Notes under the pieces: model-generated
Databases searched by the model: none
What the model was told of the DNA's origin: nothing
The model's input: the letters and a program-made list of their open reading frames with translations, nothing else
IMG/VR virus record: IMGVR_UViG_3300017751_000001
Source: a virus
Direction: 5' to 3' (one strand)
Length of the DNA: 55,913 nt
Shown here: piece by piece, positions 7,510-35,846 of the stretch
Numbering within the stretch: the first letter of the stretch is position 1
Layout: each line of letters starts with the position of its first letter
Made by a program: the position numbers and the translations under genes

Positions 7510-7567
7510 AATATACACGATCTAGACTGCTCATGGGAGAATAGTGGACAGTTCACGTAGTGTATAC
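7510..7567 (-). promoter_or_regulatory. Two-box motif promoter, copy 1
   Basis: GTATACA-N10-TGTCCAC-N28-TATATT-AAGAGAGTC. Confidence 0.7.
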
Positions 7568-7638
7568 AGAACGACTCATAGTGACTGAAAGTATGGTAGC
7601 TATAAGCTAAGCACTGCCCTTTGAACCCTTACAGAGTT

Positions 7639-7667
7639 AGTATAACGAATGCTCCAAGGATTGTCAA
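7639..7667 (-). promoter_or_regulatory. sigma70-type promoter
   Basis: TTGACA-N17-TATACT. Confidence 0.75.
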
Positions 7668-7724
7668 GTAATTTGCTACCATCAGAATCCCTTATAAGGG
7701 GTCCATAAGTGTGCCTCGGAGGTC

Positions 7725-7753
7725 TTGACATTTTCTGGGATTCATGATAGCCT
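7725..7753 (+). promoter_or_regulatory. Plus-strand sigma70-type promoter with no downstream gene
   Basis: TTGACA-N17-TAGCCT with extended -10 TGn. Confidence 0.5.
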
Positions 7754-7852
7754 GCGGTCCAAGATCACTACTCTAAGGACCATTTAAAACCGCATACATC
7801 TACGAGAGATACAACACGCAACTACATTTAATTAGCCATTTAATTAATAGCA

Positions 7853-7893
7853 TAAAAAGAACCTTCGGAGATACTCTGAAGCATATCCGAAGG
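7853..7893 (-). terminator. Intrinsic terminator candidate
   Basis: CCTTCGGA...TCCGAAGG stem followed by TTCTTTTT. Confidence 0.55.
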
Positions 7894-7915
7894 CACTTTA
7901 CGGTGTATTCGAGCA

Positions 7916-8032
7916 CTAATCGCTGTCGTATTCTACCTCGATTGCGTACTCATAATCATACTCATCTTTATTATCTTCTCTATACCTTTCCTCTTCTGAT
8001 TCGATCAGCATTGCATACTCTTCCTCATCCAT
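7916..8032 (-). CDS. Hyperacidic small protein (38 aa)
   Basis: MDEEEYAMLIESEEERYREDNKDEYDYEYAIEVEYDSD*; AAGGAG SD. Confidence 0.55.
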   Translation of the reverse strand: MDEEEYAMLIESEEERYREDNKDEYDYEYAIEVEYDSD

Positions 8033-8231
8033 TCTTCTTCTCCTTTCGCTTACCTTTCTTAGTGTTATATGTACCGAGGTTTTCTACATATAATTCTCTT
8101 ACCTTTTCATCACCTTTTAACTGTATAAGTTCTTTCCAGTTCCAATCTCTAGGATGAACACAGTTAGTATCATCTACGGTGAAATCGATAGTAACGCGAT
8201 AGCGTGTGAGTTGAGTGTTAGTGAGAAGCAT
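8025..8231 (-). CDS. Hypothetical protein
   Basis: Start at MLLTNTQL, downstream of promoter 8257-8285. Confidence 0.65.
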   Translation of the reverse strand: MLLTNTQLTRYRVTIDFTVDDTNCVHPRDWNWKELIQLKGDEKVRELYVENLGTYNTKKGKRKEKKNG

Positions 8232-8256
8232 TGTAGAGTGAGAAGTAGACCATACT

Positions 8257-8285
8257 ATTTTATATGAGAAGATATCAATTGTCAA
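8257..8285 (-). promoter_or_regulatory. sigma70-type promoter
   Basis: TTGACA-N17-TAAAAT. Confidence 0.7.
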
Positions 8286-8409
8286 TCTTTTGCATCTCTT
8301 CGTCCCTATAATACTTTACGATTTCTTGATATAAACGATCTTGTGATTTGATTGATAATTGTCCATAATAGTTAAACACTTGTCGAGTTGACGATGTTTC
8401 TTTTTTCAC
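8275..8409 (-). CDS. Small hypothetical protein (44 aa)
   Basis: GTG start overlapping upstream stop; fills the gap. Confidence 0.4.
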   Translation of the reverse strand: MKKETSSTRQVFNYYGQLSIKSQDRLYQEIVKYYRDEEMQKIDN

Positions 8410-8933
8410 GGCAATACAAGATAATTAAGATTTAAGATAATACGAGTTTGAGCATCAGTGCATGTATATCCATGATGACTAATACTACCATCAAAGATAA
8501 CAATACGATTCGCTTCACTCTTCACAATCTTCCCCGTTTCAAACTTAGTAAACCCATCATTTGTATTCAGGTAAAAGATTGCAGTTTTGTGAATATCACC
8601 AGGGATATCACGATCCCTATGAAATGTGCCAATAGGGCGATTATCATCTTGTCTCCAGTTCAAATTCACTTTTGAACTTACGATAAGCACATCAGAACCA
8701 GCATGAACATTTTCAATCTGAGGCATTATGACGCCAAAGAATATGTCAGTCCATTCGGCGTTACCTTCATTCGCACGATATAAAGTATGAGTGAATTGAC
8801 CAGTTGTTTTCTCTTCATCAGGACGAGTAATGCGCTGATTAAAGAACCAAGGAAAATCACCAGATTCGACAAGTGTATTCAGTTTAGAAAAATCTTCCGA
8901 ATCTAGAAAATCATCATAGACCTTAATACTCAT
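8406..8933 (-). CDS. 2OG-Fe(II) oxygenase-like protein
   Basis: FHRD...AIFYLNTNDG...NRIVIFDG..HHG...RIILNLNY. Confidence 0.75.
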   Translation of the reverse strand: MSIKVYDDFLDSEDFSKLNTLVESGDFPWFFNQRITRPDEEKTTGQFTHTLYRANEGNAEWTDIFFGVIMPQIENVHAGSDVLIVSSKVNLNWRQDDNRPIGTFHRDRDIPGDIHKTAIFYLNTNDGFTKFETGKIVKSEANRIVIFDGSISHHGYTCTDAQTRIILNLNYLVLP

Positions 8934-9106
8934 GGATAGTAATAATGCGACGGAGGATCTTCACCAGGGAAATGTGAATACGACTTCTGAAAGAATGGCA
9001 AAACACCTATCACTGAATTCGACCAAACATAAGTGCCATTTGAGAAACGAACAACATAATGTTTCTCTCTCGTTTTAACATCAGAAGCAGAGACTATAGT
9101 TGTCAT
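8930..9106 (-). CDS. Hypothetical protein (58 aa)
   Basis: MTTIVSASDVKTREKHYVVRF...; ATGA overlaps at both ends. Confidence 0.55.
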   Translation of the reverse strand: MTTIVSASDVKTREKHYVVRFSNGTYVWSNSVIGVLPFFQKSYSHFPGEDPPSHYYYP

Positions 9107-9366
9107 TTACCGACTCCCATTCCCATCTGTGGCGTGTTAACTTCTAACTCACTAATCACCTCTTGTTTAGGTAACAAACTATCGAGAACTTCCTGATCAT
9201 AAAGATTCAGAATCTCACCGATAAGTTCATCTTGTCCACATGTAGAATATTCTTTCATCATCATATCAAACATGCAACCGAGAAGCGAATCCATGTCCAT
9301 ATCATCAATGATCATAGTACAATAATCAGAACGCAATGTGTCAAGTTGTGATTCGTTAAGTTTCAT
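9103..9366 (-). CDS. Hypothetical acidic protein
   Basis: ORF track; resembles 11926-12099. Confidence 0.7.
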   Translation of the reverse strand: MKLNESQLDTLRSDYCTMIIDDMDMDSLLGCMFDMMMKEYSTCGQDELIGEILNLYDQEVLDSLLPKQEVISELEVNTPQMGMGVGK

Positions 9367-9389
9367 TGAATTAGAAGAATAAAGGTGAA

Positions 9390-9632
9390 TTAGTCTGTTG
9401 GGAATTGTGCAAGTTTAGCATCAGCAAGTGCAGCAATCATTGTCCACACTTTCTGTCCTGATAGTTGATTCTCAGAACAAATAAATTCGACGGAATCTTC
9501 GATAGTTTCCATCACTTCAATCGCTTCGGATGTTAGATCAGTCATGTTAGTTTTGCGAAATGTGGGAATGTCGTTGATATCGGGACCGTTCCAAAAGTCG
9601 TCCCAATCTGAAGCGTTTCCAGTCGTAATCAT
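9390..9632 (-). CDS. Hypothetical protein
   Basis: ORF track; ATGA coupling. Confidence 0.65.
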   Translation of the reverse strand: MITTGNASDWDDFWNGPDINDIPTFRKTNMTDLTSEAIEVMETIEDSVEFICSENQLSGQKVWTMIAALADAKLAQFPTD

Positions 9633-9976
9633 GAGAAGATGTAACCGTTGTCGAAATCTTCGGTTGTGAATACACTGTTACCGTTAATAGCACCCGCAAA
9701 CTTTCTTACAAACCACTTGTAATTCTTTTGAAATACTCCCTCACCAGCGATGCAAAACTCATCACAAAGTGCATTCAAACGTGATTTAGTTGTCGTTGTC
9801 TGCCAACCACCATCAAAGATTGTCATGTCGTTGTCAGAAACCTCGGCAATCTTGTTACCGTGGAGACGTACAACAGAGACACCAGTTTCGGGGTCAAAAT
9901 GAACTGAAGTGTTAGCAGACTGCCAATCAGAGTTAGATTGAACAGCGGCACACATTTGAGTTTCGATCTTACGCAT
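9629..9976 (-). CDS. Conserved phage hypothetical protein
   Basis: Start MRKIETQM; LHGNKIA, GGWQTTTTKSRLNAL, GVFQKNYKWFV. Confidence 0.75.
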   Translation of the reverse strand: MRKIETQMCAAVQSNSDWQSANTSVHFDPETGVSVVRLHGNKIAEVSDNDMTIFDGGWQTTTTKSRLNALCDEFCIAGEGVFQKNYKWFVRKFAGAINGNSVFTTEDFDNGYIFS

Positions 9977-10034
9977 GATGAGAGAAGTGAAGAGGGTTAA
10001 GAGTGCGGTGAGGTCGTTTCCCCTCCACTCCTTT

Positions 10035-10092
10035 AATATACAGGAAGTGGCGGAGAAATCCACCAAAAGTGGACGGTTCTAGGGTTGTCACA
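10035..10092 (-). promoter_or_regulatory. Two-box motif promoter, copy 2
   Basis: TGTGACA-N10-CGTCCAC-N28-TATATT. Confidence 0.75.
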
Positions 10093-10309
10093 TCGCCTTC
10101 TTAAGGTAGATTTCGGCCAACCCGATCAGGGAGCCATCCTCTACCGTGGTAGGAAGGGGAGCGGTGTTCCACTTGTGGAAGGTCTTGCCCTCATCGCCTT
10201 CGTTCATAATGTCAGTGATCAGATCGCCTGTGATCTGGATGACGTTGGAACCCTGGTAGGTTGCTCCGTAGTGAGCGGAGAGGATATCGATTGCTTGTGT
10301 TTTGTTCAT
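10088..10309 (-). CDS. Hypothetical protein (GC-rich cassette)
   Basis: Start MNKTQAID just after a -10 box; ~52% GC by hand count. Confidence 0.7.
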   Translation of the reverse strand: MNKTQAIDILSAHYGATYQGSNVIQITGDLITDIMNEGDEGKTFHKWNTAPLPTTVEDGSLIGLAEIYLKKAM

Positions 10310-10315
10310 ACTGAT

Positions 10316-10374
10316 AGTATGGCAGCTTTTGAGCTGAAAATCAAGCGATAGTGTGCAGTTGCCCAACTGGTTTG
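10316..10374 (-). promoter_or_regulatory. Two-box motif promoter, copy 3
   Basis: CAAACCA-N10-TGCACAC-N29-CATACT, includes TTGATT -35. Confidence 0.7.
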
Positions 10375-10520
10375 GGTTGGTTGATGGTATGCTGGGCCAT
10401 CCCCGCTTTTGTGTCTTGAGAATCATGGCCACCACTAGACCAAAAACCTGTTTTTTCCATAATTCTGTCGGGAGTGGGTGTTACGTCATTCGCACCGCTC
10501 CCGATATGGAAAAAAGACTA
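10364..10520. repeat. 157-bp non-coding direct repeat, copy A
   Basis: Ungapped match to 13452-13608, ~28 mismatches by hand alignment. Confidence 0.9.
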
Positions 10521-10544
10521 AGTATCATTCATGACACACACATA

Positions 10545-10790
10545 TCATAGTTTGCTATTCGCAAGTCCAACAGATTTGCAATACATTTCTGATGCTTTCA
10601 TTTCATTTTGTTGATGATAGTCCATCCATGATTTGATCTCTGCTCGAAAATCATTAATCATATCATCCGCAGAAACTTCTTCACTAGCAAGATATTCTCC
10701 TACTATGTCACACAACAAACCGCGAAGATGTTGGCGATATGGAAATGTGTCATTGTAGGTAATGTTGTCAGTCACATTTAGATCAGTCAT
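10545..10790 (-). CDS. Hypothetical protein
   Basis: ORF track. Confidence 0.7.
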   Translation of the reverse strand: MTDLNVTDNITYNDTFPYRQHLRGLLCDIVGEYLASEEVSADDMINDFRAEIKSWMDYHQQNEMKASEMYCKSVGLANSKL

Positions 10791-10963
10791 GATTGTTTTA
10801 GTTGTTGAAGAGATTGAACCGCTGATTGCATTGATGAACGAGCATATCCTGCAGCGAAAGGATAACTCCGATCAGGATTAGTATCCGAACTATCTATCTC
10901 ATGACAGACACGAATAGCATCCTTGAGGTTATCAATGATTCTGTCGATTTCAGTAGTTTGCAT
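10787..10963 (-). CDS. Hypothetical protein (58 aa)
   Basis: MQTTEIDRIIDNLKDAI...SYPFAAGYARSSM...; coupled at both ends. Confidence 0.65.
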   Translation of the reverse strand: MQTTEIDRIIDNLKDAIRVCHEIDSSDTNPDRSYPFAAGYARSSMQSAVQSLQQLKQS

Positions 10964-11157
10964 CAATACTCCGATAGAATACTCATTCGACGTTGTTGAC
11001 GTGGCACATAAAGTGCTGGACGTTTGTAACCATTACTCTTGGCATACTGCACTCGATCGATATAATCATTATACTCATCTGGTGACACTATGTCATCCCA
11101 ATCTCCATCAAAATGTTCATCAGAAGAGTAGCGATCAGTGTAGGAACTGTGCATCAT
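10963..11157 (-). CDS. Hypothetical protein
   Basis: ORF track; coupled stops/starts. Confidence 0.6.
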   Translation of the reverse strand: MMHSSYTDRYSSDEHFDGDWDDIVSPDEYNDYIDRVQYAKSNGYKRPALYVPRQQRRMSILSEY

Positions 11158-11288
11158 TTTGATCCTTGAATAGTTGTTGAGTCATAGTAGTTCATCATCT
11201 GGGTATCACGTTGCGCTAGGAATAGCAGATAACAAGTGATACCGACAAAGATAAAGATTCCACTTAGTAAGTATTGAGTTACTTTCAT
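11154..11288 (-). CDS. Small single-pass membrane protein (44 aa)
   Basis: MKVTQYLLSGIFIFVGITCYLLFLAQRD... Confidence 0.6.
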   Translation of the reverse strand: MKVTQYLLSGIFIFVGITCYLLFLAQRDTQMMNYYDSTTIQGSK

Positions 11289-11289
11289 A

Positions 11290-11544
11290 TCACCAGCGAG
11301 TTTGAATAAGGGCCGAGTTGAAAAGTTGTGGTTCTGTGTGAAGATCAGTCACTTCATAGTTGTACCCATAAACACGATTATCAACCTCTTTTTCAAACGA
11401 TTCTTTGTTAATGTAGGACTTTGATTGCATGTCATTAGCAAACGTAACTGTCTTATACATTAGACGCTCACTAATACTTCCATCAGCATACTTGACGGGG
11501 TAGAAGTCAACAACCATGTTTCCGTGTTGTGCTGTGAGTTGCAT
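11290..11544 (-). CDS. Hypothetical protein
   Basis: ORF track; follows motif promoter copy 4. Confidence 0.7.
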   Translation of the reverse strand: MQLTAQHGNMVVDFYPVKYADGSISERLMYKTVTFANDMQSKSYINKESFEKEVDNRVYGYNYEVTDLHTEPQLFNSALIQTRW

Positions 11545-11571
11545 TTGAGTTGAATTGTTTGGTATGAATTA

Positions 11572-11629
11572 ATTATAGGGCATCTGGCGCCCTATGGGTC
11601 ACCAGGTGGCCACTTCATTGGCAGGCACA
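11572..11629 (-). promoter_or_regulatory. Two-box motif promoter, copy 4
   Basis: TGTGCCT-N10-TGGCCAC-N28-TATAAT; ATAGGGC/GCCCTAT inverted repeat in spacer. Confidence 0.7.
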
Positions 11630-11829
11630 CGGGACACGGTGAGACGGCGGAAACCATAATCACGCCACTGATCGCAAGACTCGTTAACAATACGATCATG
11701 CTGCCTCTCCATGCCCTTGTGAGTCGTACACTTGCGACACTTGCGAAAGTATACGACGGGATGCTGTGGCGACTCAGGGAAGTCAATCTCGATTTTGTAG
11801 TGAGAGTGATTAGCGATTTGAACTGCCAT
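11599..11829 (-). CDS. Hypothetical protein with CxxC (GC-rich cassette)
   Basis: Start MAVQIANH; RKCRKC; ~52% GC by hand count. Confidence 0.7.
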   Translation of the reverse strand: MAVQIANHSHYKIEIDFPESPQHPVVYFRKCRKCTTHKGMERQHDRIVNESCDQWRDYGFRRLTVSRVPANEVATW

Positions 11830-11854
11830 GGAGTGACTTTCTTTTGACTCTTTA

Positions 11855-11912
11855 ATAATACAGGCGGAGGCGAGGAAATCTACAAAAAGTGGACGGTTCC
11901 CCAACTGGTTTA
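11855..11912 (-). promoter_or_regulatory. Two-box motif promoter, copy 5
   Basis: TAAACCA-N10-CGTCCAC-N28-TATTAT-TAAAGAGTC. Confidence 0.75.
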
Positions 11913-11925
11913 TTTCTCTGTACTT

Positions 11926-12099
11926 TTACAGCAAACTAGGGTTATATTGCTTTACCTCGTCAATCAATTCATCATCAGACAAACTATCCAATTCGGCATT
12001 TTGCATGTCCACAAAATACTTTTGCAAATCATCTAGCGTCATTTGACTCAAGTCCCACTGAATAAACTGCTCTTGTAAATCATCACGAATTATAGTCAT
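11926..12099 (-). CDS. Hypothetical acidic protein
   Basis: Start MTIIRDDL with GGAGG SD. Confidence 0.65.
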   Translation of the reverse strand: MTIIRDDLQEQFIQWDLSQMTLDDLQKYFVDMQNAELDSLSDDELIDEVKQYNPSLL

Positions 12100-12386
12100 T
12101 TTACCTCCACTAATTCTTGTTGATACTGCATCCATTGCTCTTCTGTGATCTCATCCACACTCTCTTGAATCACCTGATAGATGTAATCGTTGTTTCCTAC
12201 ATCGTCAAAGATACGTGCAATCAACGCAGGATCTTCTACCTGAGCATCATAATCAAACTCACCATTTTCATCCTTTAAATGACAATCATTCTTGGTATAA
12301 ATCCATGCGCCACATTCTGCATCTTCTCCCTGTTCTTCAATCATTCGTGATACTCTGTCTTGAAGTTGCTTGAGAGTGTAATTCAT
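12096..12386 (-). CDS. Hypothetical acidic protein
   Basis: ORF track. Confidence 0.7.
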   Translation of the reverse strand: MNYTLKQLQDRVSRMIEEQGEDAECGAWIYTKNDCHLKDENGEFDYDAQVEDPALIARIFDDVGNNDYIYQVIQESVDEITEEQWMQYQQELVEVK

Positions 12387-12389
12387 GAT

Positions 12390-12581
12390 TCAATTAGTGG
12401 CGTAAGTTTGAGCAATTGCATCGGACTTAAATCGTCTGCATAACTTAAACAAGAGTTTCAAGTCATCTGCAATCACATATCGAAATGAAGATGATTCGAT
12501 GATAAACTTATCATCTTCCAACCAAACTTGTGGAAGTTGTTTCTTGTAGATTGGGAAATCAGTTGGCATAATGTTAATCAA
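12390..12581 (-). CDS. Hypothetical protein
   Basis: ORF track; start uncertain. Confidence 0.6.
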   Translation of the reverse strand: MINIMPTDFPIYKKQLPQVWLEDDKFIIESSSFRYVIADDLKLLFKLCRRFKSDAIAQTYATN

Positions 12582-12730
12582 CCTCCGAACATGTCGTCGA
12601 ATAGTTGTTGTCCAGAGCGCTCATCATTTTCATATTTCTTTGCATATTGTGCCATGCGTTCGAGTGCTTCATCGCGAGAGATTGACTCAGGGAAGAAATA
12701 CTCACGGCCTGATGGAGTTGTGTAGCGCAT
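12578..12730 (-). CDS. Hypothetical protein (50 aa)
   Basis: Start MRYTTPSGREY after motif promoter copy 6. Confidence 0.65.
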   Translation of the reverse strand: MRYTTPSGREYFFPESISRDEALERMAQYAKKYENDERSGQQLFDDMFGG

Positions 12731-12756
12731 TTGGGTTCGTTTCTTTTGACTCTTTA

Positions 12757-12814
12757 ATAATACAGGCAAAGGGGGCGAAATCCACCAAAAGTGGACGGTT
12801 CGCCCACAGGCACA
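12757..12814 (-). promoter_or_regulatory. Two-box motif promoter, copy 6
   Basis: TGTGCCT-N10-CGTCCAC-N28-TATTAT-TAAAGAGTC. Confidence 0.75.
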
Positions 12815-12816
12815 CG

Positions 12817-13161
12817 TCAGCGAACGTATAAAAATGAACCGTAAGGATCTACGATCTCAGGGTGATCAGTCAAGAAATCAATATAGAACCGAATGCCTTT
12901 CGCAGGTGCTTTATGTGATGCTGGTTTGTAACATGCACCAGTCTCTTTGTCGATGAACATGAACACACCATTATTTGAAAAACTGTTATCAGCATGAACC
13001 CTGAATTGATTCACCTTGATATATTTTTTGCCTACACTATATTCTAACTTAGAGTATGAACTATGTCCCGATTCAATTGCATTAACTTTCCATCGATTGC
13101 TGACAACCTCAAGAAAACATTCGGTGAGATATTCTGTTTTGGATTGAGTGATTGTTGTCAT
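12817..13161 (-). CDS. Conserved phage hypothetical protein
   Basis: GKKYIKV...FIDKETGACYKPASHKAPAKGIRF...DPYGSFLY. Confidence 0.75.
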   Translation of the reverse strand: MTTITQSKTEYLTECFLEVVSNRWKVNAIESGHSSYSKLEYSVGKKYIKVNQFRVHADNSFSNNGVFMFIDKETGACYKPASHKAPAKGIRFYIDFLTDHPEIVDPYGSFLYVR

Positions 13162-13191
13162 GATGATAATAAAAAGTTTGTGAAGTTTGAA

Positions 13192-13380
13192 TCAGAAAGG
13201 GTTAGACCATGACTCATACTTTTTCATGGTGATGTAACCTTCCTTACAAAGTTCATCAGTGAAGCAACTCCATGCTTCTGCTTTTGCAATACTATCTGTT
13301 GCCCACTGTGTGCCCATAGTTGAAACTTTCCAGTTGTAACGGAACTGCTCCAGTGCTTGTGCTTTGGTGGTTGATCGCAT
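13192..13380 (-). CDS. Hypothetical protein
   Basis: ORF track; follows motif promoter copy 7. Confidence 0.7.
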   Translation of the reverse strand: MRSTTKAQALEQFRYNWKVSTMGTQWATDSIAKAEAWSCFTDELCKEGYITMKKYESWSNPF

Positions 13381-13405
13381 TCGGTTGAATTCCTTTGACT
13401 CTTTA

Positions 13406-13462
13406 ATAATACACGATTTTCAGGTCTGTGCGAGTTTAGTGGACACCTTGGCAACTGGTTTG
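13406..13462 (-). promoter_or_regulatory. Two-box motif promoter, copy 7
   Basis: CAAACCA-N10-TGTCCAC-N27-TATTAT-TAAAGAGTC. Confidence 0.75.
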
Positions 13463-13608
13463 GTTTGGTTGGTGGTACTCTGACATGCCCTCGTTTTCCT
13501 ATCTTGAGAACCCTTGCCACCACTAGACCGAAAACCTGTTTTTTCCATAATTCTATCAGGCACGGGTGTTACGTCATTCGCACCGCTCACGATATCAAAA
13601 AAACACTA
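13452..13608. repeat. 157-bp non-coding direct repeat, copy B
   Basis: Ungapped match to 10364-10520 (offset 3088 bp). Confidence 0.9.
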
Positions 13609-13623
13609 ATTAACATTTAACCA

Positions 13624-13932
13624 TCACACGAAGAACTGCTCTAATGGAGTTAAATTAAGTTGCATTGCAGTATATGGAGAAGTTTCATTTATGTTAACTT
13701 CAACACCTACTTTATTACAATTGACGGGGGCATGGTAAGTGTGCGTACTGCTTCTCTTTGTTCTTTTATGTTTGACGAATCCCCAGATACAACGAGATTC
13801 ATCACCATCATTGTAGAGAAACCTACGATCAGATATAGTCCAGATAGCATCCACATTAGTTTTAAATTGTATCGACTCATAGCGGTATCCTTTGGGTGGT
13901 TGATGAATAAAATCGGAGGGAAGTTCGATCAT
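13624..13932 (-). CDS. Conserved cyanophage hypothetical protein
   Basis: ORF track; IWGFVK...YHAPVN...TSPYTAM. Confidence 0.75.
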   Translation of the reverse strand: MIELPSDFIHQPPKGYRYESIQFKTNVDAIWTISDRRFLYNDGDESRCIWGFVKHKRTKRSSTHTYHAPVNCNKVGVEVNINETSPYTAMQLNLTPLEQFFV

Positions 13933-14225
13933 AGTTTGCCACTCACAACGGAGGATCCTACGACTCTAGTGTATTGTTCAAGTGTGCCATCTTGAAGACA
14001 CTTAAGATGAAATCTTGTCATCTGAGTAACACCATCTTCAGTGGCGCCAGTAAGAAAGTTAGCACCATAAGGTTCTTTTAAGACACTAGTATAAAGTCCA
14101 AACCGTGTCTTTTTAACGTAAAAGGCATCATCAATCCAGACTTGATCATCAGGAATATTCTTTTCAGTTGTAGGATTAGAACCTAGAGAATCTCTAAGTG
14201 TTGTTTTTGGTTGTTGATCAGTCAT
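13929..14225 (-). CDS. Hypothetical protein
   Basis: ORF track; ATGA coupling. Confidence 0.7.
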   Translation of the reverse strand: MTDQQPKTTLRDSLGSNPTTEKNIPDDQVWIDDAFYVKKTRFGLYTSVLKEPYGANFLTGATEDGVTQMTRFHLKCLQDGTLEQYTRVVGSSVVSGKL

Positions 14226-14464
14226 AATGTTGATACTAATTTAGATAGACCAATGACCATGAGGAATCCTAACATTCCCACAACGTCATAAGACTTAGTT
14301 CTGATGAAATATGGCAGTGACATTGTATCCCCAATCAGGTTCATTGTCACCCCAAGATAAACATTCACATGTAAAACAATAAAATAGGCAGCAATCACGA
14401 AGATGCTACCTAAGATTCTCATGGGAACGTCTAATCTCGGCAAAGAGATTGATCCATTTGACAT
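14222..14464 (-). CDS. Small membrane protein
   Basis: Three hydrophobic stretches; true start may be internal. Confidence 0.6.
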   Translation of the reverse strand: MSNGSISLPRLDVPMRILGSIFVIAAYFIVLHVNVYLGVTMNLIGDTMSLPYFIRTKSYDVVGMLGFLMVIGLSKLVSTL

Positions 14465-14571
14465 AGTTTTTCGTTCCGTGATTCAATAGTTTTCATCATG
14501 TCTGAGTTTAGCAAACTGACTAGAAGGTTTACACCTAATAGAACAACGATGGCAGAAAGTGCAATCCTCAT
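14431..14571 (-). CDS. Small membrane-anchored protein (46 aa)
   Basis: MRIALSAIVVLLGVNLLVSLL...EKLCQMDQSLCRD*. Confidence 0.55.
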   Translation of the reverse strand: MRIALSAIVVLLGVNLLVSLLNSDMMKTIESRNEKLCQMDQSLCRD

Positions 14572-14984
14572 GCTGCTACCTCTTCAGGGATTTCAATGAG
14601 TTGTCCGAAAGAATCGGACCATGTTTTAACATCATAACAGAACCATTCACCTTTGTCAAAAATATAAGCGTATTCTGCACCACAGTTATCACACTGATCG
14701 AAATACTCAGTGATTGATTCTGCAAGTTTAGGTGCATTCTCTTCGATAGATTCGCCACGACCAGTGTAATACTGAACGTGTTCGGCACACTTCTTACGAT
14801 CCCAATCAGTATCTGAAGCAATACATGACATATTGCCACCGTCAATTAGTTCTGAAACATCTTCTTTGGTGGTATACTTTTTGGATAGAGTAACACCCAA
14901 CCACTCAGGATAACCATCCCAGTGATGATAAACACTAACAATACCGCCATTAAGTTGGATGCCGATGCGAGCGTTAGTTGACAT
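14568..14984 (-). CDS. Conserved phage hypothetical protein
   Basis: Start MSTNARIG; VYHHWDGYPEWLG, AEYAYIF. Confidence 0.75.
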   Translation of the reverse strand: MSTNARIGIQLNGGIVSVYHHWDGYPEWLGVTLSKKYTTKEDVSELIDGGNMSCIASDTDWDRKKCAEHVQYYTGRGESIEENAPKLAESITEYFDQCDNCGAEYAYIFDKGEWFCYDVKTWSDSFGQLIEIPEEVAA

Positions 14985-15144
14985 AAAGAAAGAATGAAAA
15001 AGAGAGTGAGAGAGAGGCGGTTCCACGTAAGGGAACACATTTAATTTACCTCTCGATTTGTGTGGAGTTTATCACCAGCAGTAGAGTTGCCAACTGACTC
15101 ACTTAGGAGTGATGAATGGGTGTCCTGTTCCCCTCCACTCATCT

Positions 15145-15203
15145 AATATACATGATATGGGTGGTCTGTGGGAGGTTAGTGGACACTTTGTGCCACTGTC
15201 CAC
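15145..15203 (-). promoter_or_regulatory. Two-box motif promoter, copy 8 (perfect palindromic boxes)
   Basis: GTGGACA-N11-TGTCCAC-N28-TATATT. Confidence 0.78.
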
Positions 15204-15437
15204 TCAGTCTCTAATAAAATTATACTTTGCGTCACCTTTTTTCTCTTCTGGCTTATCTTCAGTCAGAACATCTGCGCCGTCAGACTCTTCCAAGTCCATC
15301 ATTTTTGGCTCATCAGCAATCATAACTGGTTCTGGCTCTGGTGCAGCAACTGGTGCGGGTGGCGTTGGTGCTGCTGGTGCTGGTGCTGTGGGTTCAGGTG
15401 AGGATTTTCCACCTAGCAATTCTCCGAATCTTGTCAT
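15204..15437 (-). CDS. Pro/Ala-rich hypothetical protein
   Basis: MTRFGELLGGKSSPEPTAPAP...; AATAAATA late-type motif at 15461-15468. Confidence 0.65.
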   Translation of the reverse strand: MTRFGELLGGKSSPEPTAPAPAAPTPPAPVAAPEPEPVMIADEPKMMDLEESDGADVLTEDKPEEKKGDAKYNFIRD

Positions 15438-15466
15438 CGTTGTTAAGGAATAGTACAATTTATTTA

Positions 15467-16357
15467 TTACCAAGTTTTGATTTTGGTAAAGTTGCGATAT
15501 GAAAACTCACGACGATTTACAAGTTTATAGGTGCCATACTTATTGGTCACAACGTAACCCTCATGATCACAATCTTCATCATCAAACTGTACCTGAACGT
15601 TTTCATCAGATGTGATCCCTTTCATCATCAATCGTTTGATTTCCATGATAGTTTTATAGAGCAATGTCATGGTCTTACCCATACCTGCATTAGAAATATC
15701 AGTATTCTCACGAATACACTTATTAACCGCTACTTTGAGTTCCTTTCCTCTCTGTTTCTCAGGAAATCTAACAAGATTTGCAACCACAGAAGCAAAATTA
15801 ATAAGGTAGTCAATTCTACGACTACGGGAGGTAAAATGAGCATCAGTGTTCAGATATCGAGTGTTACTGTTATGTTCATATCTATCCCACTTAGCATCAA
15901 AGTTTGCACACATTGTCTTGAGATCTTTACCATGATAACTGGTATGTACTGCTACAACAATACCCTTATCAATCGTCTCGTCAAAGTTATATGTGAGTGT
16001 GTTTGGAGTAAAAGTATCAGTTCCACCAAAACCTATAAAATCACCTTGCCAAACTCCTGGAGTCTTACGCAAACACTCGAAACATGTATGTAAGATAGCA
16101 GCAACCTTAGGAAGATGTCCGTGATTGAGTTCTATATCATGATGACTATAATTGATCTTTACTTTTACCTTATTGAATACACTTTTTGTACCAACAAACC
16201 ACTTTCCTTCATTTGTACCGAATACTATAGCGGGAGCACCGTCCCACTTAACAGTGGCGGTGCTGCTACGATCACGCAAGAACTGGAGCATATTGTTAAA
16301 GGTCTCGCGATTATATAAAATCGCGTCCTCGGGGTGCTCAAGGTGGGTGTTTTTCAT
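15467..16357 (-). CDS. Putative ligase-like nucleotidyltransferase (DUF6267-like)
   Basis: MKNTHLEHPED; KWDGAP, QGDF, HEGYVV, YKLV motifs. Confidence 0.65.
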   Translation of the reverse strand: MKNTHLEHPEDAILYNRETFNNMLQFLRDRSSTATVKWDGAPAIVFGTNEGKWFVGTKSVFNKVKVKINYSHHDIELNHGHLPKVAAILHTCFECLRKTPGVWQGDFIGFGGTDTFTPNTLTYNFDETIDKGIVVAVHTSYHGKDLKTMCANFDAKWDRYEHNSNTRYLNTDAHFTSRSRRIDYLINFASVVANLVRFPEKQRGKELKVAVNKCIRENTDISNAGMGKTMTLLYKTIMEIKRLMMKGITSDENVQVQFDDEDCDHEGYVVTNKYGTYKLVNRREFSYRNFTKIKTW

Positions 16358-16363
16358 GAGTTT

Positions 16364-16424
16364 ATAATAAACCATAAAAAACGCCTTGTCTGCCCCCTAT
16401 GTGACAGTTTTTATATAAGCACAC
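16364..16424 (-). promoter_or_regulatory. Two-box motif promoter, copy 9 (degenerate)
   Basis: GTGTGCT-N11-TGTCACA-N30-TATTAT. Confidence 0.55.
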
Positions 16425-16483
16425 CCCCAAAACGATGATACTGATGTTTTTGGGCGCTTTTTATATAAAAGGCAATTTGCCAT

Positions 16484-16509
16484 AAAAAAAGACCCTCACT
16501 CGGAGGGTC
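16484..16509 (-). terminator. Intrinsic terminator
   Basis: GACCCTC-CGAGT-GAGGGTC-TTTTTTT. Confidence 0.8.
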
Positions 16510-16654
16510 GTTCTTCTAGTGTATATTTCGATTTCTTAAGTTTATATCTTTTAATATATTTCTCGGCGTGTTCTCGACACACAAAGTGACAAACAGCGTC
16601 CTTAGTCTCCAATCTAAATGGAAATGCCTTCCATGGAAATTTCTCTTTTACCAT
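16496..16654 (-). CDS. Small hypothetical protein (52 aa)
   Basis: MVKEKFPWKAFPFRLETKDAVCHFVCREHAEKYIKRYKL... Confidence 0.6.
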   Translation of the reverse strand: MVKEKFPWKAFPFRLETKDAVCHFVCREHAEKYIKRYKLKKSKYTLEERPSE

Positions 16655-16657
16655 TAA

Positions 16658-17215
16658 TTATCGGATAGGAATATTAAATGACATGATTGTTCTTTGATCA
16701 TTACTTGCATTTGGTTGTGATTCATGACCAATTGCAGCAGGGAAAAGTATAATATCACCCTCCTGAACGTCTGGAAGTTGCATCATTAATACTCTACCAT
16801 AGAGAGGATCTAGGTAAGGACATTGAAGCATAGTAGAGGTATGTATCTCGGGATTAAACTCAAGATGGAGAACACCAGATATATTACCAAACCCATGATT
16901 ATGCAAACCATGATAGTCTCCACAGTGATATCTTTGAGTCCATAGTTGAAACTTAGTATAGTCACCATGTCGAGGAAGACCTACTTTTTGCCAAACATCT
17001 TCCAGGGGTTCGCCAATTAATTTCCACCACTTTTCTAGGTATGGATGTGGTGTAACATTGCCAACCTTAAAGAAATCAGTGGTACAAGTATTATTCTTAC
17101 ATTCATCACCATCAAGATCAATCATCTCAAGTAATTGAGGTTTCAACTCGTCCCAATTAGGCAGAGAAATCTTATGAACAGGTATTCCGAAGAGATCAAG
17201 TGATCCGAAAGTCAT
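16658..17215 (-). CDS. 2OG-Fe(II) oxygenase-like protein
   Basis: HGLHNH, ISGVLH, EGDIILFPAAIGHES, RTIMSFN. Confidence 0.8.
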   Translation of the reverse strand: MTFGSLDLFGIPVHKISLPNWDELKPQLLEMIDLDGDECKNNTCTTDFFKVGNVTPHPYLEKWWKLIGEPLEDVWQKVGLPRHGDYTKFQLWTQRYHCGDYHGLHNHGFGNISGVLHLEFNPEIHTSTMLQCPYLDPLYGRVLMMQLPDVQEGDIILFPAAIGHESQPNASNDQRTIMSFNIPIR

Positions 17216-17344
17216 TTGCGTCTTTTGTCCTTTTTGCGAAGTTTAGTGCCTGGTCTCTTTAAATCTTTTCTAAGATTTTGTAGAAACTTAAAGTGTGCTC
17301 TTAGTGGGTCAATCACATGTAGACTGACCCTAATATCTCGATCT

Positions 17345-17581
17345 TTACTCAATTTCAATCCATCGTAAGTTTGGGATATCATCGTCATTATACTGACTCA
17401 TATCGTCCACAAAAGTCCACTCAGAGTCTTCAGATTCGTCATCAACAACCATCTCACTGACGATTGATTTTGCATCATCGTAACGATCCTCACCGACTAA
17501 TACTTCCAAACGAGAAGCATAAGTATTTTCTAGATTGTCGAGACAGTTGTCACGAATTTGTTCGATCATTGTGTTTTGCAT
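17345..17581 (-). CDS. Acidic hypothetical protein
   Basis: ORF track. Confidence 0.65.
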   Translation of the reverse strand: MQNTMIEQIRDNCLDNLENTYASRLEVLVGEDRYDDAKSIVSEMVVDDESEDSEWTFVDDMSQYNDDDIPNLRWIEIE

Positions 17582-17605
17582 GTGATTAGTCTAGTGTAAA
17601 ATTAG

Positions 17606-17824
17606 TTACTTGTCAACTTTCCAATCTTTGTTACCCTTAACAGGCACCCAAAAAAAGTAACATTGATTCAGTGACTTGAGAAACATCCACTGAGAACCAT
17701 CTGCCATCTCACGTTCATTTTCAATAGTGCAAGAATGAAAGAGGTCCATCTCATTGGCAAACCTATTCTTTGCCTTCCGAGATAGCGGAGTCACAGTGAC
17801 TCGTTTGGTCTTGGTCTTGGTCAT
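17606..17824 (-). CDS. Hypothetical protein
   Basis: Start MTKTKTKRV after motif promoter copy 10. Confidence 0.7.
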   Translation of the reverse strand: MTKTKTKRVTVTPLSRKAKNRFANEMDLFHSCTIENEREMADGSQWMFLKSLNQCYFFWVPVKGNKDWKVDK

Positions 17825-17843
17825 AGTTGTTTTTTCAACAGTC

Positions 17844-18209
17844 TTATTGTAAGGCATCTAACAGTGGATTGGTGGGTATGGTGTCCAGTTCATTCAACTG
17901 TCCACCCTGTCCCCGAGAACCCTTGCCACCACTAGGGTTCAGTAAATGTTTATTTTGAATTTTCTTTGATTTTCGTTTGACAGGTGTTTTGGTACGTTTC
18001 TGCGATTTAGAATATGTCTTTTGGAGTTTTTCTACTCTACGCATGGCAATATCAAAGGAGGATGATAATCCCATTGGATCACCATTGCAAATTACCATCC
18101 ATTTTTTGCCACAAGGGAGTACAGCAAACAACCCATTAGGTGAGACATAATCTTTTATATACTTACTGTTAAGTATAGTTGAATTGTGGTTATGATACTT
18201 GTCTTTCAT
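17844..18209 (-). CDS. Hypothetical protein (3' end overlaps 28-bp site and motif promoter)
   Basis: ORF track. Confidence 0.6.
   Translation of the reverse strand: MKDKYHNHNSTILNSKYIKDYVSPNGLFAVLPCGKKWMVICNGDPMGLSSSFDIAMRRVEKLQKTYSKSQKRTKTPVKRKSKKIQNKHLLNPSGGKGSRGQGGQLNELDTIPTNPLLDALQ
17846..17905 (-). promoter_or_regulatory. Two-box motif promoter, copy 10
   Basis: GTGGACA-N11-TGGACAC-N29-TACAAT. Confidence 0.7.
17915..17942. repeat. 28-bp imperfect palindrome (11-6-11), third copy of the CCACCA-core site
   Basis: GAGAACCCTTG-CCACCA-CTAGGGTTCAG; first 21 bp identical to 13506-13526. Confidence 0.8.
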
Positions 18210-18410
18210 CTATCCATGACACTCCATAAACTCATCGAGTGTGTAACCTTCGCCAGTGTCAGTCTCTTCAATCAATTGTTCGATTGTAAGTTCTTCCATC
18301 TCTTTGCGATATTCTTCTGGTGTTGGATCTTGTGGATCGTAATCGTCATGGCAGAGATATTCCCATTCATGAACAAGTGCGTCCACAAGTTGTTCTTTGG
18401 TGTAGTTCAT
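18210..18410 (-). CDS. Acidic hypothetical protein
   Basis: ORF track; ATGA coupling to helicase. Confidence 0.7.
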   Translation of the reverse strand: MNYTKEQLVDALVHEWEYLCHDDYDPQDPTPEEYRKEMEELTIEQLIEETDTGEGYTLDEFMECHG

Positions 18411-19612
18411 CGACGAATCTCACTGATAGCGGGTTGACCTTGATTAAACACAACATCAACAACTGCCTGAACTTTCTTGGCAGTGCTGATACCTACTCTG
18501 TCATAAGTTGGGATGCAAACTAACCCAAACTTCTTCTCACTTCCACCCAGACGGATCACACGACCGATAGACTGACTGATACCGATGTAATCCATGTTAC
18601 GCATGAAGATAACAGCCTCAAGTCCACTGACGTTGATACCCTCAGACAGAATAGAGTGGTGAAGAACAACAAACTTTTTGGTCTTGTCCTTGCCCCAGGT
18701 GTTCAGAGTGTCAAAGAATACATCGCGATTGACTTTCTTGCCATCGATGATTGCACCTGTCTTCGATGTAATAGTCATCCAAGAATAACCACGTTTGCGA
18801 AGTTGTAAACAAAACTTAGAATGAGTGAGAAGATTGATGATCTGTTTTGTTGTGCGAGCACAGATCAAAGTTTTGTTGATTTTGTTGTCATCAATAGTCT
18901 CAAGCAGATTGTCACAATCATCAGCAAACATAACCTTACGACCTTTGATCATAGGCAGTTGCTTGACTACAACTTTAGGGGGGAGAATGTAACCCTGTTC
19001 AACCAACTCAGGAGCAGGAACATTGCACAGAACCTGACCATAAACAGACCAATTCATGCCTGGTTTAGAAGGCGTGAGAGAATGTTTAGGTGTTGCAGTA
19101 AAGAAGTAACAACGATTTGTGTTCTCTGCAAAATACTCAGTCGCAGGGAAGAAGTTCTTCTGAACACTATTATGTGCTTCATCAAAGTAGATGTTGTCTA
19201 CCTCAATGTCTGCTTCCACAACACGATGAAGAGAATGATAAGAGGTAAAGATAATAACATTCTCACCTACTGCACGAGCAGTGTTAGCAAAGACATGAAT
19301 ATCGTTTGCTTTGGTTGTAGAATAGTGGTCGGTTTCACCACTATGAACGTGCATCACATGCGTGTGAGTAGTATCAATCAACTCAAGGAATTCAGAGCAC
19401 AGTTGTTCTGCCAACAGAATACGTGGAGCAACAACAACAGTCGTCATTCCGTTGTCAATATACTTACAATTCTCCACAACATCCTGAATCATACAGATAG
19501 TTTTGCCACCACCTGTAGGCACGATAACTTGACCCTTGTCATAGGCAAGCATACTATTAAGAATGCGTTTCTGATGTGGACGAAGGGTCAGGGTCATTCG
19601 TGTTCCGTTCAT
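18407..19612 (-). CDS. Superfamily 2 (DEAH) helicase/ATPase
   Basis: LRPHQ, PTGGGKT, DEAH, TAT, SEGIN, QSIGRVIR motifs. Confidence 0.92.
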   Translation of the reverse strand: MNGTRMTLTLRPHQKRILNSMLAYDKGQVIVPTGGGKTICMIQDVVENCKYIDNGMTTVVVAPRILLAEQLCSEFLELIDTTHTHVMHVHSGETDHYSTTKANDIHVFANTARAVGENVIIFTSYHSLHRVVEADIEVDNIYFDEAHNSVQKNFFPATEYFAENTNRCYFFTATPKHSLTPSKPGMNWSVYGQVLCNVPAPELVEQGYILPPKVVVKQLPMIKGRKVMFADDCDNLLETIDDNKINKTLICARTTKQIINLLTHSKFCLQLRKRGYSWMTITSKTGAIIDGKKVNRDVFFDTLNTWGKDKTKKFVVLHHSILSEGINVSGLEAVIFMRNMDYIGISQSIGRVIRLGGSEKKFGLVCIPTYDRVGISTAKKVQAVVDVVFNQGQPAISEIRR

Positions 19613-19618
19613 AGATTA

Positions 19619-19676
19619 ATTATACACAAAAAAACCCCCTTAGGCAAGGAGGTGGGACAGTATGATAACCGTCACA
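19619..19676 (-). promoter_or_regulatory. Two-box motif promoter, copy 11
   Basis: TGTGACG-N10-TGTCCCA-N5-TTGCCT-N17-TATAAT. Confidence 0.72.
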
Positions 19677-19679
19677 TGA

Positions 19680-19829
19680 CTAGAACTGACGAAGTAGTTT
19701 CTCAGTTTCGGGATCGAATTTCTCTCGGATACCACTATTAGGCATCCAATCTTCAGGACCAGTTTCCATCATACTATCATAGAGTTCATCGAAATCGTTG
19801 TACTCAAAATCAAATTGGTCGTTGTTCAT
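19680..19829 (-). CDS. Small acidic protein (49 aa)
   Basis: MNNDQFDFEYNDFDELYDSMMETGPEDW...LRQF*. Confidence 0.6.
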   Translation of the reverse strand: MNNDQFDFEYNDFDELYDSMMETGPEDWMPNSGIREKFDPETEKLLRQF

Positions 19830-19831
19830 AA

Positions 19832-20107
19832 TCAAGTAGGTTGAGAGTCGCCAGTTAGGAGTTCAGTTGGACCTTCAGAGACAGGTGTTACCATGTCAAA
19901 CTTTTCTGTGATTGAAATCTTTTCACGGAATGAACTCAGTTCACTGTGAAGAGCAACAATATCACTTTGAGTTTTATTGAGAGCACCTAGTACGAGTTGC
20001 TCAAGTTCACCCAATCGTCGGTCAAGTTCACCAACTGTTGCCATTGTAGCATTCAGTTGTTTGGTAAGTCTGTCCTGTGTGTGGATAGAAGCGCGTTGAT
20101 CTGCCAT
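19832..20107 (-). CDS. Coiled-coil hypothetical protein
   Basis: ORF track; AATAAATA late-type motif upstream. Confidence 0.7.
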   Translation of the reverse strand: MADQRASIHTQDRLTKQLNATMATVGELDRRLGELEQLVLGALNKTQSDIVALHSELSSFREKISITEKFDMVTPVSEGPTELLTGDSQPT

Positions 20108-20170
20108 AATGAGTTAATCTAGACGTTGTATTTATTGGTGATTGGCAAGGGTCTCTCAGAGGACTCTTTA

Positions 20171-20228
20171 ATTATACTCCATGAGACCCCCCTAGGAGCG
20201 TCTCTGAGACAGTTTGTAGACTGGTTAG
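20171..20228 (-). promoter_or_regulatory. Two-box motif promoter, copy 12
   Basis: CTAACCA-N10-TGTCTCA-N28-TATAAT-TAAAGAGTC. Confidence 0.7.
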
Positions 20229-20383: not shown

Positions 20384-20946
20384 GATGATGAAGTGTAGTG
20401 ACTTGTATTAAAACTAACCATAATTCTATCTTGATCGCTCTCATTTACTCTACTACCATGTTCCAACCAACTTGGAAAGAGATAGAGATGATTCTCTCTT
20501 ATCGGTAGATCAAATTCGTAGGCATTATAGTCGGAGTAATCTTCATGTAACTCGCACATTCTATATGGTTGTAGTGGTGAAACAAAATAAAGATCACCAC
20601 TATTTTGTGGTAGATCTAGATAAAGTGCTCCACTCACTACACTATATTCATGTCGATGTCGTCTTGTATATCCACCAGTAGGTAAAACATTATACCAGGT
20701 ATTGTCAATTTGTACAGGTTTACATCGAAGTTTGTTAACATAATCCTGAAGACAATCTACGAATAATTTACCTACGGGAAGAGATTCTTCAATAGAAAAA
20801 GGATCCCATCTGCCATGACTAGACTCTCCAGTAACAGATAAATGGTGGAATCCTTTCTGTCCCTGTTCACCAATTATTTGTTTAAATTTAGAGAGAGTAG
20901 ACCCCGAAAGGTCATACTCTTCAACTAGAACAGGGAATAACTTCAC
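20380..20946 (-). CDS. 2OG-Fe(II) oxygenase-like protein (TIGR02466-like)
   Basis: WYN..HRH..SGALY..LFPSWLEHG..RIMVSFN. Confidence 0.82.
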   Translation of the reverse strand: MKLFPVLVEEYDLSGSTLSKFKQIIGEQGQKGFHHLSVTGESSHGRWDPFSIEESLPVGKLFVDCLQDYVNKLRCKPVQIDNTWYNVLPTGGYTRRHRHEYSVVSGALYLDLPQNSGDLYFVSPLQPYRMCELHEDYSDYNAYEFDLPIRENHLYLFPSWLEHGSRVNESDQDRIMVSFNTSHYTSSS

Positions 20947-35551: not shown

Positions 35552-35566
35552 GGAACCTCTAGATTT

Positions 35567-35587
35567 AAAGGGGGCATTACACCCCCC
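35567..35587 (-). terminator. Hairpin/terminator after tmRNA
   Basis: GGGGGG-TGTAATG-CCCCC-TTT. Confidence 0.55.
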
Positions 35588-35594
35588 AGAACTA

Positions 35595-35842: not shown

Positions 35843-35846
35843 GGAA

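Follow-up and report, generated by a model that had tools for sequence, protein, structure and literature searches.

What does an element do when it is repeated twelve times in one direction between the small genes of a virus: start transcription, offer a site for recombination, or both? The question is raised by positions 7510-20228 of the IMG/VR record IMGVR_UViG_3300017751_000001, whose full 55,913 nt are referred to here as the window. A sequence-only reading had described this region as an integron-like array of promoter-gene cassettes punctuated by a palindromic two-box element, with copies that we number E1 to E12. In our judgement the twelve sites are quite probably early-class promoters, ten of them with a dyad that is read by a protein, and the elements quite probably act in addition as homology patches.

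The two-box element and its genome

Judged by its matches, the window is a T4-like Synechococcus cyanomyovirus and the array region is its hyperplastic small-gene region. The stretch 7400-20400 matches solely Synechococcus and Prochlorococcus myoviruses, the top match being Sf-FS3 (80.7% identity over 39% of the stretch). Every gene from 7.4 to 22.5 kb lies on the minus strand, and the array is located between the baseplate and tail-fibre modules, with Pfam matches to gp6, gp53 and T4_baseplate proteins flanking it on both sides. Within the array, Pfam recognizes a Kyanoviridae Gp96 protein (Kyano_Gp96), DUF7717, DUF6267 and several 2OG-Fe(II) oxygenases; a UvsW-type helicase was identified by homology. 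The twelve co-oriented copies stand within 12.7 kb among the small accessory genes of this region. Each promoter unit holds from one to about eight genes, and the helicase (401 amino acids) and the DUF6267 gene product (302 amino acids) are not tiny, so the description of the units as one to five tiny genes has to be given up. An Rfam scan of 7-21 kb returned one sub-threshold ctRNA match only, within a coding region.

A two-block weight matrix was built from instances in 80 related IMG/VR loci (given L numbers here) and in Syn9. Its leave-out version was made from 143 instances of other phages, with the window and its two closest relatives (L003 and L004) excluded, and was used at a threshold of 5. 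Over the whole 55.9-kb window this matrix returned exactly twelve matches, all on the minus strand and all at the coordinates first read from the letters, and none on the plus strand. An earlier matrix at threshold 6 gave a single match in just 2 of 20 shuffled windows; over about 770 kb of related loci the two-block matrix matched the gene strand 181 times and the opposite strand not once. The simple pattern GTCCAC-N27/28-TANNNT likewise has six occurrences on the minus strand, while dinucleotide shuffles lead one to expect 1.2 for each strand. All twelve sites are upstream of operon starts. The number and common orientation of the copies are therefore confirmed, and their description as two-box elements is good for ten of them; E9 (16364) and E12 (20171) score only through the -10 block and are promoters without a convincing two-box. 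A candidate thirteenth copy, marked by AAAGAGTC at 4559, was rejected because it sits within a coding region.

Read on the minus strand, each site follows the order box A (TGTGMCA, GTGGACAGTT or AAACCAGTT), box B about 11 nt further on (TGTCCAC or a near variant) and a -10 hexamer, just upstream of which GTG is conserved. In the ten two-box copies, box A (G-M-C-A-G-T-T), 4-5 nt and box B AACTGTCCAC (A-A-C-T-G-T-C-C-A-C) together form a 24-bp dyad of imperfect symmetry, in which box A, at -17 to -8 counted from box B, is an imperfect inverted repeat of the latter; the palindrome first described is thus real as dyad symmetry and imperfect in detail. Box B stands 27-29 bp upstream of the -10 in these ten copies, and over all twelve sites the spacing is 28 bp in eight copies, 29 in two, and 27 and 30 in one copy each, in agreement with the range and the main value first reported. 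Among 158 unique instances the spacer is 28 bp in 90 and 29 bp in 61 (151 of 158), and such phase-locking to the -10 implies direct contact with the transcription machinery. If the -10 hexamer is taken as -12 to -7, box B falls at about -47 to -41, box A at about -64 to -56 and their centre near -52, so that anatomy and conservation support the suggested promoter with an upstream recognition site centred there. At ten of the twelve sites no -35-like hexamer is found at the usual spacing, in line with the sequence-only reading, and a sigma-70 scan calls E11 (TTGCCT-17-TATAAT), weakly E9 (CAGACA-17-TATTAT, 9/12) and no others.

Downstream of the -10, a conserved start region (AAGAGTCAAAGG or GAGTGGAGGGG) carries the ribosome-binding site. 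The downstream boxes noticed at the outset are present, AAAGAGTC following E5, E6, E7 and E12 and GAGTGGAGGGG following E2 and E8; E1 has GAGAGTC. Two subtypes can be recognized, type I (E2, E5 and E6) and type II (E1, E7 and E8). Stretches of 20-24 bp are exactly identical between E5 and E6, between E6 and E7 and between E2 and E6. Six stop codons had been placed at the first box: those at 10088, 12817, 15204, 19680 and 20225 do touch or overlap box A, and that at 11599 lies after box B. GAGTC occurs exactly 4 nt past the -10 in 66 of the 158 instances (42%), spanning the likely start site. It is a GANTC site, of the type methylated by CcrM-type enzymes, and the Syn9 array contains a DNA methyltransferase gene; genome-wide, GANTC shows neither depletion nor striking excess (242 observed, 194 expected), and GAGTC is not part of such a pattern.

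The same element is present in reference cyanophages. A scan of the whole Syn9 genome gave nine matches, all on the plus strand, seven of which lie at 43.1-53.0 kb around the helicase in an array homologous to that of the window; the two-box precedes gp55, gp63, gp68, gp73 and the helicase gp75. In P-TIM40 the dyad is perfect (TGTGACA...TGTCACA) and four copies stand at 52.4-55.0 kb; P-HM2 has several copies and S-PM2 three weak ones. Because Syn9, P-TIM40, P-HM2 and, weakly, S-PM2 carry it, the element is, as far as sequence can tell, the conserved cyanomyovirus early-promoter element. An early-gene regulatory element was reportedly predicted in Syn9 by Weigele et al. in 2007, and Doron et al. 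are said to have described in 2016 (ISME J 10:1437) a novel regulatory element that controls early genes and is tied to the early start sites of Syn9 and P-TIM40, conserved among T4-like cyanophages.

Breakpoints at the elements in related phages

The relatives of the window are metagenomic fragments, many of them mutually related, and the counts below are not independent events. A census between locus pairs at least 88% identical yielded 33 distinct clean indels. Five of the 33, between 0.3 and 3.9 kb in size, have promoter elements as direct repeats of 18-70 bp at their two ends, and all indels with flanking direct repeats of at least 29 bp are bounded by promoter elements. The five comprise an indel of 1132 bp with a 53-bp repeat from box B to the start region (L013/L029), one of 938 bp with a 46-bp repeat (L032/L007), one of 3877 bp with a 29-bp repeat over boxes A-B (L018/L028), one of 579 bp with a 70-bp repeat of the hairpin-type helicase promoter (L068/L066) and one of 302 bp with a shared 18-bp T-run and -10 (L030/L040). 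The crossovers accordingly vary in place, falling in boxes A-B, between box B and the start region, or in the T-run and -10, with 18-70 bp of identity. Another 17 of the 33 indels have plain gene junctions on both sides, without elements.

Breaks within elements are also found when the window is set against its relatives. At E7, homology to L004 starts at the -10, and a tRNA-Leu(TAA) and a type I element stand in for 13413-13505; at E5, homology to L171/L172 starts at the -10 (position 11864), and so does homology to L193 at E3 (position 10324). Homologues of the gene at 11544, which lies behind E4, have at least four different upstream halves or element variants, and many other phages have elements on both sides of the single-gene units 10309-10088 and 11829-11599. 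No indel separates the window from the contig behind L170/L190, which is near-identical to it (99.8%). In L004, a relative 94% identical to the window, the tRNA-Leu(TAA) and type I element lie at 16108-16193 and take the place of the upstream half of E7; whether Syn9 infects Synechococcus WH5701 is reported to depend on the supply of Leu-TAA tRNA (PMC11726456).

Homology blocks between the window and the 80 loci end mostly at gene boundaries. Some of these ends coincide with elements, namely E7 box A (15 loci), E8 box A (9), 12817 by E6 (12) and E11 (18), and others do not, namely helicase/g7 (22 and 69 loci), g7/g8 (27) and positions 11289, 12386 and 12578. Elements occupy 11% of 1462 gene junctions and 67 of 222 (30%) homology boundaries at junctions fall there; this enrichment is explained by the roughly threefold greater length of the element-bearing gaps and was discarded.

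The claim that the element is the junction for cassette gain, loss and shuffling is thus borne out for a minority of events, by the five indels and the breaks at the -10 of E3, E5 and E7, and fails as a general rule, with 17 indels at plain junctions and no boundary enrichment once length is considered. Breakpoints do occur at the elements in relatives. As to the mechanism, analogy with PeSLs, the repeated early-promoter units of other T4-type phages (PMC2839356), suggests that in this minority the pattern is one of homologous recombination between dispersed promoter repeats. The integron likeness does not survive: each unit has its own -10, the crossover points are variable, and no integrase or recombinase Pfam domain was found in the 38 scanned of the 42 window open reading frames (ORFs) of at least 140 amino acids; the search did not extend to the other four, of which one is the 2423-amino-acid ORF, or to the remainder of the genome.

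The factor that may read the dyad

Cyanomyoviruses lack the T4 polymerase-reprogramming proteins Alt, Mod, MotA and AsiA (genes alt, modA, modB, motA and asiA), and a 2010 review (PMC2984593) called the control of their early and middle transcription unclear and their early promoters little understood. The phage form of the two-box is scarce in hosts. TGTGNCA-N10-12-TGTCCAC has no match in five marine Synechococcus genomes, and in four of those the one-mismatch form gives 8 matches versus 5 controls, which is no enrichment; these results show that hosts do not use the phage form as a general motif. The strict pattern is too narrow for a variant of the yfr2 type, which was found through Rfam RF01701 loci. 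From 41 yfr2 promoters collected in this way, a Gibbs sampler run on the host sequences alone returned a 24-nt motif, tgtG.CAGTt.a...Ag.G.cC; in 33 of the 41 it is located at -58 to -65 relative to the start of the Rfam model. The motif aligns with the phage element in register over 24 of 24 columns (column-shuffle p = 0.0045), the conserved columns in agreement being G-M-C-A-n-T and then A-S-n-G-n-C-C. In 20 of 32 host promoters the motif stands 36-37 bp from the best -10, a distance that measures 35-36 bp in the phages, and the phage matrix has its best match at -59 to -63 in 11 of 12 Synechococcus yfr2 promoters. The two promoter types thus share the blocks G-M-C-A-G-T-T and A-S-n-G-n-C-C with equal internal spacing, nearly the same distance to the -10 and the lack of a -35; they differ in box B, which is AGCGCCC or AGAGTAC in the host and AACTGTCCAC in the phage.

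A known element of yfr2 promoters is CGRE1, a 21-22-nt palindrome that starts 55-57 nt upstream of the yfr2 start sites in Prochlorococcus and marine Synechococcus, has the signatures GTTG (low-light) and GTTA (high-light), and serves as the binding site of PMM1637, a GntR regulator of the PlmA family (Lambrecht et al. 2018, PMC6191309); it is found nowhere else in the MED4 genome (PMC6778093). Because yfr2 promoters have the same two blocks at the same distance from the -10, a host PlmA-type GntR regulator is the best candidate for the factor reading the two-box, and we put it forward tentatively, binding of PlmA to phage DNA being hypothetical. It is conceivable, if still short of probable, that T4-like cyanophages copy the yfr2 promoter architecture as a whole, that the two-box is a PlmA-type site through which one host stress regulator would switch early transcription, and that these sites double as shuffling seams. 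In eight of the host loci (L232, L234, L235, L237, L238, L243, L251 and L264) the yfr2 promoters have a perfect 21-nt palindrome, CAACTGGCAC-N-GTGCCAGTTG; it consists of phage-box half-sites in reversed order and lies between the two-box motif and the -10 in marine Synechococcus.

We propose the following course of events. The twelve sites would be the early-class promoters of the hyperplastic small-gene region, ten of them built as a dyad, a 28-29-bp gap, a GTG-preceded -10 and a conserved start region, and in most copies the dyad would occupy the place where a -35 is otherwise needed. The dyad would be read as double-stranded DNA by a protein, possibly the host PlmA-type regulator, that aids host RNA polymerase straight after infection. 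Being 50-80 bp long and repeated directly between unrelated genes, the elements would therefore serve as homology patches for the general recombination system of the phage, and recombination between them may account for a minority of the events by which related phages gain and lose genes or swap promoters.

Several points weigh against this proposal. Of the 33 clean indels, 17 are at junctions without elements, and the boundary enrichment dissolved with gap length. The similarity between host and phage matrices is moderate (z = 3.2). The de novo host motif is taken to be CGRE1 from its place, length and GTTG/GTTA signature, and a GTTA variant, which would be predicted in phages of high-light Prochlorococcus, was not seen in P-HM2. 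The two-box itself is probably the element of Doron et al., judging by the matches in Syn9 and P-TIM40.

The moderate matrix similarity and the P-HM2 result would suit a different reader of the boxes, either a protein delivered with the virion or a part of the host RNA polymerase itself (an alternative sigma factor or the alpha C-terminal domains), with the likeness to yfr2 being superficial. Most phage copies of box B also have an extra C (TGTCCAC) relative to the host forms, and T4 sets a precedent by injecting an enzyme, Alt, that favours its own early promoters; on the other hand, cyanomyoviruses have no alt, modA or modB (PMC2984593). This reading is a possible one that we would not call likely, and the agreement with yfr2 promoters in blocks, spacing and distance to the -10 counts against it. 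A host factor of all cyanobacteria would also fit one infection programme across hosts, and Doron et al. reportedly observed in 2016 a single infection programme in different hosts.

That the dyad is instead an operator, at which a phage-encoded repressor ends early transcription started by the extended -10 alone, is improbable. Operators are typically palindromic, and the GTG conserved upstream of the -10 makes -35-less initiation conceivable; however, the site at about -64 to -41 is upstream of the core of the polymerase footprint, which is usual for activators and not for repressors, and the host yfr2 promoters of like organization are induced, not repressed, via their element (PMC6191309).

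A hairpin of boxes A and B in RNA or DNA, by which the upstream transcript would be ended or protected as by the stem-loop half of a PeSL, is very unlikely. In its favour, the two boxes are inverted repeats, the stop codon upstream often adjoins box A, and in promoters of the E11 type box B belongs to a real terminator stem. Over the 158 instances, however, pairing at the 10 symmetric position pairs never exceeds the expectation for independent columns; a mean of 5.5 of the 10 positions pair, and C at -13 opposes T at +2 in 59 instances. Terminator-like stems, moreover, occur in just two of the twelve window elements (E11 and, weakly, E6). For lack of covariation the hairpin reading was rejected, and the two boxes are therefore a recognition site read as duplex DNA and not kept as a hairpin.

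Least credible of all, and hardly to be entertained, is an attC-like site for a dedicated recombinase in a true integron analogue: repeated imperfect palindromes do separate the cassettes and bound some indels, but no recombinase domain was found among the scanned ORFs (the 2423-amino-acid ORF was outside the scan), crossovers fall anywhere in the element with 18-70 bp of identity, every cassette has its own promoter, and the element is uninvolved in half of the indels.

Relative to the literature that we found, the new points are a concrete candidate factor for the early element, the host PlmA-type regulator suggested by the likeness to yfr2, and sequence evidence for PeSL-like recombination seams in cyanophage populations; both are relevant to the takeover of hosts and the exchange of accessory genes by abundant viruses of the ocean. 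The CGRE1 literature searchable here contains no discussion of cyanophages and no mention of a likeness between phage and yfr2 promoters. If the candidate is right, early transcription of the phage would be switched on by a single host stress regulator, of a kind found throughout the cyanobacteria.

Features of the array and its likeness to known systems

Table 1. Predicted promoters and adjoining elements of the array, all on the minus strand; scores are from the leave-out matrix, and genes are those each promoter is predicted to drive.
Feature	Position	Score	Parts	Genes and context
E1, two-box early promoter	7510..7567 (-)	55.2	box A 7567-7559; box B TGTCCAC 7550-7544; -10 TATATT 7515-7510, then AAGAGAGTC	ATG 7481
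E2, two-box promoter	10035..10092 (-)	42.3	box A TGTGACA; box B CGTCCAC 10075-10069; -10 TATATT 10040-10035; leader GAGTGGAGGGG	box A overlaps TGA stop of a 73-aa gene; Kyano_Gp96 gene (ATG 9976) and about 7 more
E3, weaker two-box promoter	10316..10374 (-)	23.8	box A AAACCAGT; box B TGCACAC 10357-10351; -10 CATACT/TACTAT	boxes A and B within a small ORF; one 73-aa gene (10309-10088)
E4, two-box promoter	11572..11629 (-)	13.5	box A TGTGCCT; box B TGGCCAC 11612-11606; -10 TATAAT 11577-11572	inside 3' end of a 76-aa gene; gene 11544-11290 and 4 more
E5, two-box promoter, type I	11855..11912 (-)	37.7	box B CGTCCAC 11895-11889; -10 TATTAT 11860-11855, then AAAGAGTC	one 76-aa gene (11829-11599); 80% identical to E6
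E6, two-box promoter, type I	12757..12814 (-)	42.9	box A TGTGCCT after stop at 12817; box B 12797-12791; -10 12762-12757	weak terminator-like stem 12807-12791, box B included
E7, two-box promoter, type II	13406..13462 (-)	41.6	box B TGTCCAC 13445-13439; spacer 27; -10 TATTAT 13411-13406	unit of promoter and 2 genes (13458-12817), present as a block in at least 12 relatives
E8, two-box promoter, best dyad (GTGGACA...TGTCCAC)	15145..15202 (-)	40.4	box B 15185-15179; -10 TATATT 15150-15145	
E9, promoter without convincing two-box	16364..16423 (-)	box block -5.5, -10 block 11.7	box B position 16406; -10 TATTAT 16369-16364	DUF6267 gene, ATG probably 16357
Intrinsic terminator	16491..16509 (-)		7-bp stem with 5 GC pairs, then T7	closes E10 operon, precedes E9
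E10, two-box promoter	17846..17904 (-)	27.4, box block contributing 25.1	box A GGTGGACAGTT; box B TGGACAC 17887-17881; -10 TACAAT 17851-17846	inside 3' end of a 121-aa gene; ATG probably 17823
E11, helicase (UvsW-like) promoter	19619..19676 (-)	33.5	box A TGTGACG; box B TGTCCCA 19659-19653; -10 TATAAT 19624-19619	terminator hairpin and T7 at 19653-19634; -35-like TTGCCT in hairpin loop
E12, hairpin-type promoter (CAGAGAC...GTCTC)	20171..20228 (-)	box block -0.7	no convincing box B (position 20211); -10 TATAAT 20176-20171, then AAAGAGTC	
Direct repeat copy 1, about 165 bp	10366..10532 (-)			runs into box A of E3; small ORF MEKTGF..SSGG..NQ.KPV
Direct repeat copy 2	13454..13617 (-)			runs into box A of E7; 82.7% identity to copy 1

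Some features in and around the array deserve mention (Table 1). The repeat pair brackets about 3 kb, and relatives have one copy, the region of one relative matching both window copies. In each copy, a sigma-70-like promoter accompanies a small ORF (MEKTGF.SSGG...NQ.KPV) with boxes A and B in its 3' end, and the SGGKGS motif of this ORF recurs at the C-terminus of the 121-amino-acid protein (17844-18209) overlapping E10. The E8 leader (15040-15145, minus strand) is about 100-160 nt long and begins with GAGTGGAGGGG like the E2 leader; an ATG at 15142, only 2 nt past the E8 -10, is unlikely to be a real start. E12 resembles the GTGGCACAGAG...CTCTGTGC type found upstream of the helicase genes of relatives. 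A second promoter-like repeat, a GC-rich hairpin followed by CTAAACTGTC-N4-5-TAGTAT, occurs in eight relatives (L009, L025, L040, L044, L049, L058, L073 and L077), where it replaces the two-box upstream of the helicase or of homologues of the 11544 gene, and may represent another temporal class. Directly upstream of the array, a gene at 20943-22463 (minus strand) encodes a 506-amino-acid protein with a C-terminal HNH nuclease domain and is followed by a translationally coupled 2OG-Fe(II) oxygenase gene. Farther away, ARAGORN marks with a star a candidate transfer-messenger RNA at 35541-35869 (minus strand; tag peptide AKTSDTAANNIVAFSRTRELATA), which overlaps a tRNA-Thr and adjoins a tRNA-Met and a tRNA-Asn.

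With integron cassette arrays the region shares co-oriented small-gene units separated by imperfect palindromes; it differs in that no integrase was found among the scanned ORFs and in lacking an attC structure, a shared Pc promoter and a fixed crossover point. The likeness to the PeSLs of RB49/phi1, T4/PST and KVP40/nt-1 (PMC2839356, PMC4122927) goes further. Both have a hyperplastic region in which repeated early-promoter units separate small accessory genes and adjoin their stop codons. In both systems, close relatives also differ by indels that have direct repeats of the unit at their ends (here with two elements bounding a minority of events), crossover points vary and may lie between the -10 and the start codon, and no dedicated recombinase was found, here among the ORFs scanned. 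A PeSL, by contrast, combines a sigma-70 promoter that has a -35 with a G/C stem-loop terminator, whereas here the two-box dyad replaces the -35 and the internal stem-loop is limited to E11 and, weakly, E6. In its build, E11 is clearly the one PeSL-like composite of the array, and this build is common to the orthologous helicase promoters of relatives, which have boxes A and B, a terminator hairpin whose loop contains TTGACA, and a -10. The PeSL literature searchable here does not cover cyanophages, and the sole cyanophage paper found that considers PeSLs gives few in S-PM2 (PMC4503421). The array is therefore PeSL-like, neither a PeSL array in the strict sense nor integron-like.

The closest counterpart is the cyanophage early element of Syn9 and P-TIM40. 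The two-box sequence, its distance to the -10, the lack of a -35 and the departure from the general host promoter type are the same, as is the clustering upstream of small genes, around the UvsW-type helicase in Syn9 and likewise in P-TIM40. Nothing essential is different; the window has more copies (10 + 2 in 12.7 kb) and its subtypes can be recognized. The promoter element itself was already known, and the array of the window is an ordinary, well-preserved example of it.

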